Positions 36,320 through 39,960 of a stretch of DNA of 64,000 nt are shown here, in pieces; positions within the stretch are counted from its first letter, which is position 1; the number at the start of each line of letters is the position of its first letter. The DNA comes from Trueperaceae bacterium (GTDB taxonomy: Bacteria > Deinococcota > Deinococci > Deinococcales > Trueperaceae). Location: the NCBI GenBank assembly GCA_034521815.1, contig JAXHLW010000013.1, positions 480,001-544,000 of the forward strand, given 5' to 3'. The notes under the pieces were generated by a model. That model worked only from the letters and a program-made list of their open reading frames with translations. It did not search any database and was not told the DNA's origin. Position numbers and translations under genes: made by a program.

Positions 36320-38389
36320 ATGACGACCGAGACCAAGATCGATCTCCATATGACGCGCAACATCGGGATCGCCGCCCATATCGACGCGGGCAAGACGACC
36401 CTGACCGAGCGCATCCTGTTCTACGCCGGCCGCATCCACAAGATGGGAGAGACCCACGAGGGGGGCTCCCAGATGGACTGGATGGAGCAGGAGAAGGAGC
36501 GCGGCATCACCATCACGTCCGCGGTGACGCAGTGCGCCTGGAACGGCTACACGATCAACATCATCGACACGCCCGGCCACGTGGACTTCACGATGGAGGT
36601 CGAGCGTTCGATGCGCGTTCTGGACGCGGCCGTGGCCGTGTTCGACGCTTCGCAGGGCGTCGAGCCTCAGTCCGAGACGGTCTGGCGTCAAGCCGATCGC
36701 TACAAGGTGCCCCGCCTCGCGTTCGCGAACAAGATGGACAAGACGGGCGCCGACTTCCAGCTGGTGCTCGACTCGATGGACGAGCGCCTGGCGGCCAACG
36801 CCGTGGCGATCCAGTGGCCGATGGGCGCCGAGGACGACTTCCTGGGCGTGATCGATCTGGTCGAGCTCAAGGCCTACACGTACGGCGACGATCTCGGTCA
36901 GGACATCCGCGTCTCCGAGATTCCCGACGAGTACGTCGAGCTGGCCAACGAGAAGCGCACGCTGATGATCGAGAAGCTCGCCGACGTCGACGACGAGGTC
37001 GCGATGAGCTTCCTCGAGGGCGAAGAGATCGCCGTCGACGTGATCAAGAACGCGATTCGTCAGGGCGTCATCGATCTCGCGCTGTTCCCGGTCATGTGCG
37101 GCTCCGCGCTGAAGAACAAGGGCGTGCAGCGGGTGCTGGACGCGGTGACCTACTACCTGCCGAGCCCCCTCGACGTGCCGCCGATCCACGGCGTGCTCGA
37201 GGACGGCACGGAAGAGGTCCGGCCGGCCGACGCCGACGCGCCCACCTCCGCTCTGGCGTTCAAGATCGCCGCGGATCCGTACGTGGGCCGCCTGACCTTC
37301 GTCCGGGTGTACTCGGGCGTGCTCGAGGCCGGCAGCTACGTGCTGAACGTGTCGAAGGGCAAGCGCGAGCGCATCGGGCGGCTGCTCAAGATGCACGCCA
37401 ACAGCCGTGAAGAGGTGGACCGCATCTCCGCAGGCGATCTGGGCGCCGTGATCGGTCTGAAGGACACCAGCACCGGCGACACGCTGTCGCACGTCGACCA
37501 CCCGATCGAGCTCGAGTCGATCGAGATCCCCGAGCCGGTCATCACGGTCGCCATCGAGCCCGTCTCGAAGGCGGACCAGGACAAGCTGGGCGCGGGGCTC
37601 GCGAAGCTCGCCGAGGAGGATCCGACGTTCCGCGTCGAGACCGACCCGGAGACCGGACAGACGAAGATCTCGGGCATGGGCGAGCTGCACCTCGACATCC
37701 TCGTCGACCGGCTCAAGCGCGAGTTCAAGGTCAACGCCCACGTCGGCGCGCCCCAGGTGGCGTACCGCGAGACGATCACCCGCCACGTCGAGGTCGAGGG
37801 CAAGTTCGTCCGCCAGACCGGTGGCCGCGGCCAGTACGGCCACGTCAAGATCAAGGCCGAGCCGCGCGAGCGGGGCGAGGGGTTCGAGTTCGAGAACTCC
37901 GTCGTCGGCGGGACGATCCCGAAGGACTTCATCCCCGCCGTCCAGAAGGGCGTCGAGGAGTCGATGCAGAGCGGTCCGTTGCTCGGCTTCCCGATCGTGG
38001 ACATGAAGATCTCGCTCTACGACGGCTCCTACCACGAGGTCGACAGCTCCGAGATGGCGTTCAAGATCGCCGCCTCGATGGCCGTGCGCAACGCGATGGA
38101 GAAGGGTGGCGCGGTCGTGCTGGAGCCGGTGATGCGCGTCGAGGTCGTCACGCCCGAGAACTACATGGGCGACGTCATCGGCAACCTGAACTCCCGGCGC
38201 GGCCAGATCCAGGGCATGGAGCCTCGCGGCAACGCGCAGGTCGTCACCGCCCACGTTCCGCTGGCCGAGATGTTCGGCTACGCGACCGACCTCCGCAGCC
38301 TGAGTCAGGGCCGCGCGACCTTCACGATGTTCCTCGACCACTACACCGCGGTGCCCAAGGGCATCCAAGAAGAGCTCACCAAGAAGTAA
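36320..38389 (+). CDS. fusA: Elongation factor G
   Basis: [46 protein letters not shown]. Confidence 0.99.
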
Positions 38390-38417: not shown

Positions 38418-39635
38418 ATGGCGAAAGCTACGTTCAACCGTACGAAGCCGCATGTGAATGTTGGGACGATTGGGCATGTGGATCATGGGAAGACGACGTT
38501 GACGGCGGCGATTACGTTTGCTGCTGCGGCGATGGATCCGTCGGCGACGACGATGTCGTATGACCAGATTGATAAGGCGCCGGAGGAGAAGGCGCGTGGG
38601 ATTACGATTAATACGTCGCATGTGGAGTATCAGACGGAGTCGCGTCATTACAGTCATGTGGATTGTCCGGGGCATGCGGATTATGTGAAGAACATGATTA
38701 CGGGTGCTGCGCAGATGGATGGTGCGGTGTTGGTGGTGTCGGCTGCGGATGGTCCGATGCCGCAGACGCGTGAGCACATTTTGTTGGCTCGGCAGGTGGG
38801 GGTTCCTTACATTTCCGTGTTTTTGAACAAGGTGGACATGGTGGATGATGAGGAGTTGTTGGAGCTTGTGGAGATGGAGGTTCGTGAGCTTTTGTCTAGT
38901 TACGAGTTTCCTGGGGATGATGTGCCTGTGGTGTCTGGGTCTGCGTTGAAGGCGTTGGAGGCGTTGTCGGCGAATCCGAATGTGCAGCGTGGTGAGGATG
39001 CGTGGGTGGATAAGGTTTGGGAGCTTCTTGATGCGGTGGATGCGTATATTCCGACGCCTGAGCGGGATGTGGATAAGCCGTTTTTGATGCCTGTCGAGGA
39101 TGTGTTCACGATTACGGGTCGTGGGACGGTGGCGACGGGTCGTGTTGAGCGGGGTGTTGTGAAGACGGGGGATGAGGTTGAGGTTGTTGGTCTTGTCGGC
39201 GACGCGGAAGACGGTTGTGACGGGTGTGGAGATGCATCGGAAGACGTTGGATAGTGGGATGGCTGGGGATAATGTCGGGGTTTTGCTTCGTGGTGTGGCG
39301 CGGGATGATATCGAGCGTGGGCAGGTGCTTGCGAAGCCGGGTTCGATTACGCCGCATACGAGGTTTTCTGGGAGTGTGTACATTTTGAGGAAGGAGGAGG
39401 GGGGCGTCATTCGGCGTTTTTTGCGGGGTATCGTCCTCAGTTTTACTTTCGGACGACGGATGTGACGGGGGTTTGTACGTTGCCGTCGGATGTGGAGATG
39501 GTGATGCCGGGGGATAATGTGGAGTTGTCGGTGGAGTTGATCAAGCCGATTGCGATGGAGGAGGGTCTTCGGTTCGCGATTCGTGAGGGTGGTCGTACGG
39601 TGGGTGCGGGCGTCGTGACGGGAATCCAGGAGTAA
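38418..39635 (+). CDS. tuf: Elongation factor Tu; +1 then -1 frameshift in this assembly; extreme G/T3 codon bias
   Basis: [21 protein letters not shown]; shifts at ~39192-39196 and in the G-run 39399-39404; C-terminus [16 protein letters not shown]..., TAA at 39633; 405 codons in total. Confidence 0.95.
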
Positions 39636-39639
39636 TCTC

Positions 39640-39960
39640 GTGGCGACCCCGAAGATTCGTATCAAGCTCAAAGCGTTCGATCACCGCAGCCTCGACAGCT
39701 CGGCGACGCGAATCGTCGACACGGTGCGTCGAACCGGTGCGGACGTGGCCGGCCCCGTGCCGCTACCGACCCGTACCCGGCGCTTCTGCGTGTTGCGCGG
39801 CCCCTTTACCGACAAAGACAGCCGCGAGCACTTCGAGATCCGTACCCACAATCGGTTGATCGACATCAAATCGCCGACGAAGAGCACGATCGACAGCCTC
39901 ATGCACCTCGACCTCCCGACCGGGGTGGACATCGAGATCAAGACGGTCGGAGGGCGGTAA
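39640..39960 (+). CDS. rpsJ: 30S ribosomal protein S10
   Basis: [24 protein letters not shown]. Confidence 0.98.

Follow-up and report, generated by a model that had tools for sequence, protein, structure and literature searches.

Concerted evolution of duplicated tuf genes, which encode the elongation factor EF-Tu, is described for tufA and tufB of Salmonella and Escherichia coli, where one copy lies in the str locus and the other in a tRNA-tuf-secE-nusG locus, near-identity is restricted to the coding sequences and conversion ends at the gene ends (PMC5485169). Gene conversion between tuf copies has been reported in six phyla including Deinococcus-Thermus (PMC6053082). The available parts of both papers describe no strand-asymmetric loss of C and A from silent sites, and the terms "skew" and "GC content" do not occur in PMC6053082. 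Such a loss is found in a tuf gene within a 64,000-nucleotide (nt) stretch of a Trueperaceae genome (G000:C13:480001-544000, given as genome, contig and positions; hereafter the window), where the str-operon copy of tuf, at 38418..39635 on the + strand, carries codons that end almost exclusively in G or T. Here, conversion appears to be biased besides homogenising.

A second described system concerns the mismatch endonuclease NucS/EndoMS. EndoMS prefers G/T, G/G and T/T mismatches and shows little or no action on C/C, A/C and A/A (PMC4838380). In Mycobacterium smegmatis, oligonucleotides directed to the lagging-strand template are kept at C-C, A-A, C-A, A-C, G-A and A-G mispairs and rejected at G-T or G-G mispairs, within a patch of about 5-6 bp (PMC11551744). 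Deletion of nucS raises homeologous recombination, and the bacterial enzyme is reported only from Actinobacteria and Deinococcus-Thermus (PMC5290159), while in Haloferax volcanii the deletion severely impairs gene conversion (PMC11276520). The keto/amino axis of the tuf skew is the axis of NucS/EndoMS specificity, and relatives of the genome were therefore typed for their repair genes. With a probability of roughly 0.45, we propose that the skew results from NucS-filtered, strand-polar gene conversion between tuf copies.

The genome comprises 2.63 Mb in 13 contigs at 71% guanine plus cytosine (GC). Its 2187 open reading frames (ORFs) were called with a model built on codon positions 1 and 2 only, which leaves the third position without influence, and were ranked by their third-position keto excess, keto3 (G3+T3-A3-C3, each term being the fraction of codons ending in that base). 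The mean of keto3 is -0.058 with a standard deviation (SD) of 0.115; the two highest values belong to the two tuf copies of the genome, 0.87 for an intact second copy and 0.82 for the copy in the window. Above a pair of recA genes no further gene of known function except tuf is ranked, and the single ORF in between is an ACG/ATG repeat. This ORF at rank 3 (G000:C1:281141-281407) is of low complexity, encodes Thr/Met/Ile repeats from an ACG/ATG-rich tandem repeat and is probably no gene.

The skew has sharp limits. Measured in 300-nt windows, positions 38450-39649 have a GC skew of 0.38-0.49 at a GC of 0.52-0.59, and on both flanks of tuf the values return to -0.11 to +0.11 and 0.63-0.72. The upstream neighbour fusA (36320..38389, + strand) lies only 28 nt away, has normal C/G-ending codons in both codon table and composition profile, and serves as an internal control; rpsJ (39640..39960, + strand) starts 4 nt past the tuf stop, is normal in composition and marks the 3' limit of the island. 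Genome-wide, an absolute GC skew above 0.25 is reached in 45 of 26,219 windows of 600 nt, which merge into six regions: both tuf genes, both recA genes, a C3-rich gene of the opposite strand and a further region. The segment G000:C13:220701-221500, with a + strand GC skew of -0.34, adjoins a transposase-like ORF. A preliminary description of the window, made from the letters alone, had claimed a G/T-ending compositional island confined to tuf, and both the windows and the per-gene ranking bear this out; its hand count of the first 60 tuf codons is likewise reproduced, with C-ending codons at positions 6, 7 and 49 and a single A-ending one.

In the open 278-codon part of the window copy, third positions are A.02, C.07, G.55 and T.36. 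Compared with the genome mean, tuf C3 is 0.06 instead of 0.485 and T3 0.34 instead of 0.059, and the GC content of the gene falls to 0.56. In the intact copy A3 is 0.00, all 32 Thr codons are ACG, and GCC, CCC, ACC, CTC and CTG are each absent; Leu is encoded by TTG (18) and CTT (8), whereas CTG and CTC make up 88% of Leu codons genome-wide. At two-fold pyrimidine-ending codons the T:C count is 72:18 in intact tuf and 12:152 in fusA. The avoidance of C covers every silent site, first positions of Leu codons included. It relaxes towards the gene ends, as the preliminary description had noticed for the 3' end: codons ending in C number 2 among the first 10, 5 among the last 21 and 17 among the 374 between them (terminal 7/31 versus internal 17/374, Fisher p = 0.0011), and six other skewed lineages show a similar trend. 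Other highly expressed genes, which the preliminary description had named as a check, do not share the bias; fusA and the ribosomal protein genes (rpsL, rpsG, rpsJ, rplC and others) use C-ending codons, the opposite of tuf.

The existence of a second tuf copy had been predicted, and it is found intact at G000:C13:312767-313984, in a tRNA-tuf-rpmG-secE-nusG locus with genes for tRNA-Thr, -Tyr, -Gly and -Thr upstream and rpmG, secE and nusG downstream. Its product satisfies the domain definition of EF-Tu, with matches to PF00009 (GTP_EFTU, 2.7e-66), PF03144 (domain 2, 9.7e-21) and PF03143 (domain 3, 1.4e-38). The tRNA cluster directly upstream reads Thr(TGT)-Tyr(GTA)-Gly(CCC)-Thr(GGT) (L001:1664-2147), the arrangement known from the thrU-tyrU-glyT-thrT-tufB operon of E. 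coli, except that the Gly anticodon here is CCC. The two copies agree in 1203 of 1219 positions of an alignment that opens 1 nt ahead of the ATG and closes within the stop codon, and their flanks are without similarity; identity and skew thus share their boundaries, as had been anticipated, and both span exactly the tuf coding sequence. The paralogs are 98.7% identical to one another and 96.1% identical to the gene of the closest relative, G004 (48/1218 differences), and in two-copy relatives both tuf copies give identical scores. Different flanks, identity confined to the coding sequence and paralogs closer than orthologs are the marks of concerted evolution. The preliminary description had also taken the protein to be native, in agreement with an identity of 79-98% to relatives of the same order and of at most 75% in a broad scan (a comparison of identity only). 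The island is native to both tuf copies and has been inherited in them, and gene conversion maintains their likeness.

Draft genomes of relatives tend to break at this gene. In G001, G017, G004, G003 and others, tuf often lies at a contig end, or fusA is joined directly to rpmG-nusG, and in 5 of the 10 other genomes of the same genus (g1) tuf was not found; assemblies or bins seem to be disrupted by the tuf repeat, to which its unusual composition may contribute. G001 and G017, with fusA-tuf-rpmG-nusG on one contig, were dropped as single-copy cases, as their contigs break off 86 nt and about 56 nt, respectively, from rpsJ, which indicates a collapsed second copy.

The pattern of substitution speaks to whether the bias arises in mutation or in the spread of variants. 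Relative to G004, with 93.5% identity over 8.7 kb, 48 of 1218 sites differ in tuf and 495 in the remaining 7469 nt; 28 of the 48 differences in tuf are G<->T changes and only 8 are C<->T, whereas outside tuf G<->T changes number 34 among the 495. In comparisons with G005, G001 and G003, four-fold sites differ at 0.23-0.24 in tuf versus 0.32-0.61 in 10 neighbouring genes; since the latter are near saturation, only the direction of this rate difference is usable, and the closer G004 pair was used. Of the 39-47 four-fold differences in tuf, 36-41 are G<->T and 1-3 are C<->T, and those of the neighbours are mostly C<->G. Because tuf silent sites change more slowly than their neighbours and mostly between G and T, a fixation bias would be at work and not C->T mutation. 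Faster turnover and C<->T differences would be expected from an elevated rate of C->T mutation. Only G and T seem to be admitted at tuf silent sites, which looks like selection or transmission bias, and a bias in the spread of variants between copies fits better than one in their origin. Amino-acid replacements at otherwise conserved residues point the same way at codon positions 1 and 2: amino->keto and keto->amino changes stand at 28:5 when six NucS-only lineages are taken together, versus 26:38 in eight other lineages, a count that is only suggestive as lineages share history. A strict test on fixed differences yielded 1 site only. Together with the shift of Leu from CTN to TTG, this lean of replacements from A/C to G/T suggests that the pressure acts on nucleotides, not on codons.

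A second gene pair allows the skew to be separated from the transcript. Other multicopy loci had been put forward as a check, and two recA copies (G000:C1:332470-333582 and G000:C13:1275596-1276714; loci L002 and L003), one of them in a cinA-recA-rny setting, share a 984-nt core of 98.6% identity, while their N- and C-terminal tails are unrelated. Third positions of the core are C3.20-.21, G3.65-.66 and T3.13, and the unshared tails have C3.31-.56; the same contrast recurs in 7 further recA genes of genus g1 and 2 of genus g7. In recA the skew is tied to the shared tract and not to the transcript. Three more genomes of the family (G005, G013 and G016) likewise have two recA genes whose cores are 98-100% identical, so that recA is a second gene under concerted evolution in this family. 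In G013, which has MutS and MutL (MutSL), the core is 100% identical and unskewed, and a skewed recA occurs only in the genera with the most extreme tuf. A PPK2 gene with a 447-nt partial duplicate (keto3.29) was rejected as a further case, as its skew is not confined to the shared tract.

Within the phylum, the skew is graded and varies with the repair type. Genus g1 (G000-G010) has tuf C3 of.01-.06, and other genera of the family and order, all of them two-copy, range from equally extreme through G-rich (G3.64, C3.16-.21) to C-rich (C3.57-.71). The milder versions, found in sister families, accord with the weaker skew that the preliminary description had mentioned for Thermus. A 1987 article in Eur J Biochem reportedly gave a G3 of about 61% for Thermus tuf. 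More widely, keto3 runs from -0.56 to +0.51 in 80 tuf genes from many phyla (the broad scan, with a best identity of 75%) and from -0.24 to +0.54 in a second phylum-wide sample of 30 loci centred on G031. Six Trueperaceae genera, including 11 of 11 genomes of genus g1, carry a strong NucS and no MutS_I match, with tuf keto3.31-.96 and T3.19-.45; four genera of the family carry MutS_I and no strong NucS, with keto3 -.17 to +.30. The NucS of the genome under study (L242:789-1571) matches NucS_N (9.8e-13) and NucS_C (1.8e-24) and, over residues 4-231, Thermococcus EndoMS (5gke, E = 6.4e-39). MutS_I and MutL_C were not found in any of the 11 genus g1 genomes (completeness 80-98%), and the same searches found them in 13 and 14 other relatives; MutL_C was absent from the five NucS-only genera searched for it. 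Presence of NucS with MutS_I and MutL_C undetected extends across genus g1 as well as G012, G015, G016 and G018, and the consulted part of a 2017 survey names only Deinococcus-Thermus species with both systems.

Outside the family the repair types are more mixed: g11 has tuf C-rich with neither NucS nor MutS found, g10 has both systems and an unskewed tuf, g14 both systems and a G-rich tuf, and g12 MutSL only and a G-rich tuf with T3.16-.18. Searches for NucS_C, MutS_I and MutL_C found none in two genomes of g11 (G020 and G028, 99-100% complete, tuf C3.71), which thus seem to be devoid of both known systems of mismatch repair. The preliminary description had attributed the skew to a process acting on the tract shared by two tuf copies. 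The part of this claim that concerns conversion stands insofar as the skew is limited to the tract, but duplication alone is insufficient, as several lineages with two identical copies are unskewed.

A comparison of one-tuf and two-tuf relatives, also proposed in the preliminary description, could be made in a second phylum, that of a Gaiellaceae metagenome-assembled genome, where 121 genomes were searched and 50 tuf genes measured. Strong skew occurs in two-copy genomes only: keto3 is at least.24 in 8 of 23 two-copy genomes and in 0 of 26 one-copy genomes, whose maximum is.17. All 23 two-copy genomes were finally typed for repair, and keto3 reaches at least.36 in 6 of 9 that are NucS-only, in none of the 6 with MutS_I and in none of the 8 with neither. 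The 3 one-copy genomes with a strong NucS are all unskewed. Judged from both phyla, strong skew occurs only where tuf is duplicated and NucS/EndoMS is the sole mismatch system found, with counter-examples taken up below.

How a repair enzyme could generate such a pattern may be envisaged as follows. When the copies pair, each differing site would present a mismatch, and the NucS/EndoMS of genus g1, which lacks MutS and MutL, is predicted to act on G/T, G/G and T/T and not on A/C, C/C and A/A. The resident single strand is assumed to be usually the sense strand, which in a gene co-oriented with replication is the lagging-strand template. Where A or C is resident and A or C arrives, NucS would then miss the mismatch, and the resident base would become T or G after replication; where G or T is resident and G or T arrives, the mismatch would be caught and the resident base restored. 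New G/T variants would spread to both copies and new C/A variants would be erased, so that silent sites ratchet towards G and T, with the ends of the homology tract lagging behind. Changes between G and T, which produce G/A and T/C mispairs that NucS handles weakly, would be roughly neutral. This model would account for the axis of the skew, its strand specificity and its restriction to converted tracts with relaxed ends. It would also explain why G<->T polymorphism persists, why two copies are needed and which taxa show the skew. As far as the consulted parts of the M. smegmatis study go, oligonucleotide rejection by NucS displays the same asymmetry that the model needs, site by site and in a short patch; the assay is an engineered one with synthetic oligonucleotides, and those parts treat neither natural conversion between paralogs nor an evolutionary consequence (PMC11551744).

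Several points weigh against NucS-filtered conversion. The anatomy of the tracts, the restriction of the skew to converted sequence, the substitution pattern and the co-occurrence with two copies and NucS-only repair are observations, to which the model adds that NucS would act on heteroduplexes between paralogs and that exchange would be strand-polar. GC skew suggests that both tuf copies are co-oriented with replication, but weakly (cumulative amplitude 0.46 over 30 windows), and one recA copy sits where the + strand looks lagging. In Deinococcota, the both-system genera g10 and g14 split into one unskewed and one skewed, and the NucS-only G353 has only a moderate skew (keto3.31). Genomes G021 and G025 of g12, a genus of a sister family, with MutS, MutL and only weak NucS_C matches, have tuf C3.16-.19, G3.64 and T3.16-.18, and G380, with MutS and no NucS, has G3.60 and C3.31. 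G-rich skew can thus arise without NucS, and g12 is the clear counter-example to the necessity of the enzyme. MutS recognises C/C poorly, which might give the weaker, G-only skew of some MutSL lineages. The NucS-only genera of the family may form one clade and represent one event, and all these comparisons are correlative among related lineages. In the second phylum, 3 of the 9 NucS-only two-copy genomes are unskewed (keto3.13, -.14 and -.14), and the first ten genomes typed were picked by skew in the manner of a case-control design. Copy numbers were taken from assemblies, in which collapsed repeats hide copies. Finally, duplications of 2-8 kb with 96-98% identity in the genome under study are unskewed, though these may be assembly artefacts. 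They are tandem or nearby (G000:C13:1667675-1683560, C12:16766-31987 and C13:961753-986044), some of their ORFs are truncated in one copy, such as a large molybdopterin oxidoreductase-like gene, and they resemble artefacts of strain mixture or long-read assembly.

The window copy of tuf has its own assembly problem. A length of 405 codons had been claimed for it, which is true of the second copy; as assembled, the window copy has two compensating frameshifts, and its ORF stops at 39254. An alignment gap reveals one extra base relative to copy 2 at 39192..39196 (+ strand, near 39195), which shifts the frame, and a G-run at 39398..39404 (+ strand) is one base short and restores it, each probably an assembly error; the approximately 203 nt in between are out of frame and hold the stop at 39252-39254. 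The extra base adjoins the sole variant codon that differs between the copies at all three positions (GCG in the window, AAT in copy 2). Public data were consulted as Logan contigs of four runs from three studies (X1, X2, X4 and X5), all of them fragmentary; the runs holding the sequence are salt-pan, hypersaline-lake, sediment and microbialite metagenomes. Every covering contig in the four runs leaves out the base at 39191-39196, and a G is inserted behind 39398 in 4, 7, 1 and 1 contigs, the entire covering depth of the four runs. One 390-nt contig (X4, record 22) otherwise matches the window fully, its specific variant codon included. Because contigs from all four runs are without them, both indels are probably assembly errors. 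The junctions of the gene had been singled out as a test for a chimeric assembly. Contigs that span the fusA-tuf junction are present in X1, in X2 and, from a different study, in X5; between tuf and rpsJ no bridging piece occurs among the contigs listed, a point that, like uncovered stretches and differences in depth, was not used as the runs are fragmentary.

Among the other explanations, we consider it unlikely, if deserving of serious attention, that gene-specific selection on the composition of mRNA or DNA favours G and T and that conversion merely spreads the favoured variants. In one version, a G-rich, C-poor sense RNA could not be loaded by Rho while a C-rich antisense RNA would be terminated by it at once, and in another, a C-poor mRNA would fold less in a cell of 71% GC. 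Such selection agrees with silent sites that are conserved and confined to G and T and with the relaxation of the last ~21 tuf codons, where premature termination matters no more; Rho itself is encoded in the genome by an ORF of 672 aa, a matter of presence alone. Selection of this kind gives no ground to expect that a second copy is needed (keto3 reaches.24 in 0/26 one-copy versus 8/23 two-copy genomes) or that the skew is linked to NucS-only repair, it offers no reason for the escape of fusA and the ribosomal protein genes encoded in these operons, and it would have to reach recA, which is not among the most expressed genes, in the converted core only. It is very improbable that translation selects, in EF-Tu and RecA specifically, a codon set read by particular tRNAs such as C34 isoacceptors or a modified G34. 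EF-Tu is the most abundant protein, and tRNA-Gly(CCC), the reader of the favoured GGG, is encoded in the cluster upstream of copy 2; yet fusA, rpsL, rpsG, rpsJ, rplC and other highly expressed genes use the opposite codons instead of sharing the preference, as a translational codon bias would have it, T- and C-ending two-fold codons share one tRNA, first positions of Leu codons and amino-acid replacements are shifted too, and the recA tails are exempt.

The mechanism favoured by the preliminary description, strand-polarised mutation of C to T or G through exposed single strands, R-loops or RNA templates, is not supported. Deamination of cytosine and adenine on the non-template or lagging-template strand, made extreme in tuf and recA by very high transcription, R-loops or recombination intermediates, appears improbable to us. 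Sense-strand C->T and A->G changes are the known direction of asymmetry linked to replication and transcription, with which the skew agrees, and both the replacement of CTG by TTG for Leu and the ratio of CGT to CGG for Arg look like simple C->T change of the usual genome codons. It is difficult to reconcile with Thr codons that are ACG in 32 cases and ACT in none, with a ~76-fold shift in two-fold T:C odds between fusA and tuf, 28 nt apart in one operon, with transcribed recA tails that are unskewed, and with tuf silent sites that change more slowly than their neighbours and show few C<->T differences. The keto skew of leading or coding strands, reportedly treated by Lobry and by Francino and Ochman, has the same direction, with G and T overrepresented on the leading or sense strand, but it is genome- or operon-wide and weak, whereas the present skew is limited to the converted tracts of two gene pairs, lies ~8 SD off the genome mean and does not extend to fusA, rpsJ or the recA tails. 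Foreign DNA or a chimeric assembly is scarcely credible as an origin. The drop in GC from 0.67 to 0.55 within the gene and an assembly with indel errors and suspicious 96-98% identical duplications might suggest it, but the loci of both copies are canonical, the skew recurs in members of the genus whose protein is 88-98% identical, no match from outside the order exceeds 75%, and the bridged fusA-tuf junction argues against both a chimera and a horizontally acquired island.

Two further processes are instructive by comparison with NucS-filtered conversion. GC-biased gene conversion is also a non-adaptive fixation bias that stems from the handling of mismatches in heteroduplexes and can override codon preferences. 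It favours G and C on both strands, whereas in tuf C is lost and T gained on one strand, that is, keto versus amino and strand-polar, and the enrichment in G plus C that it entails is lacking, C3 being far below and T3 far above the genome means. Fungal repeat-induced point mutation (RIP) acts on duplicated sequence only and removes C, as here; it hits both strands and destroys genes, while in the present case one strand is affected and the proteins are intact and conserved, so that RIP was rejected for tuf.

We found no description of G/T-ending tuf genes or of keto-biased conversion in a literature search that left supplements and many journals uncovered and so does not prove unpublished status; a review on NucS (PMC8228993) contains none of "gene conversion", "codon" and "duplicat", and "tuf" does not occur in PMC5290159. 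New here are recA as a second skewed pair, the limitation of skew to the tract, the slow G<->T change at silent sites and the co-occurrence with NucS-only repair. It is possible, if somewhat doubtful, that in NucS-only bacteria any strand-polar conversion amounts to a keto drive, a new class of biased gene conversion in Deinococcota and Actinomycetota. Such a drive would recode duplicated essential genes at their silent sites and in some of their amino acids, with tuf affected widely and recA in Trueperaceae, and would be expected also in duplicated genes of NucS-only archaea. If NucS-filtered conversion is correct, the codon usage of the most expressed bacterial gene would in some lineages be set by a blind by-product of DNA repair and not by translation or expression, which would bear on the inference of codon bias and of "optimal codons" as well as on the interplay of gene conversion and mismatch repair. 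NucS, known mainly from studies of mutation rates, would gain an evolutionary footprint, and its in vivo mismatch specificity could be read in uncultured organisms. It would likewise bear on detectors of horizontal transfer and on metagenome binners, as these tuf genes look foreign.

Among the other repeated genes of the genome, two kaiB-kaiC-like pairs, each followed by a GGDEF-type gene (G000:C12:130956-133705 and C13:942727-945391), have 86% DNA identity and normal composition.

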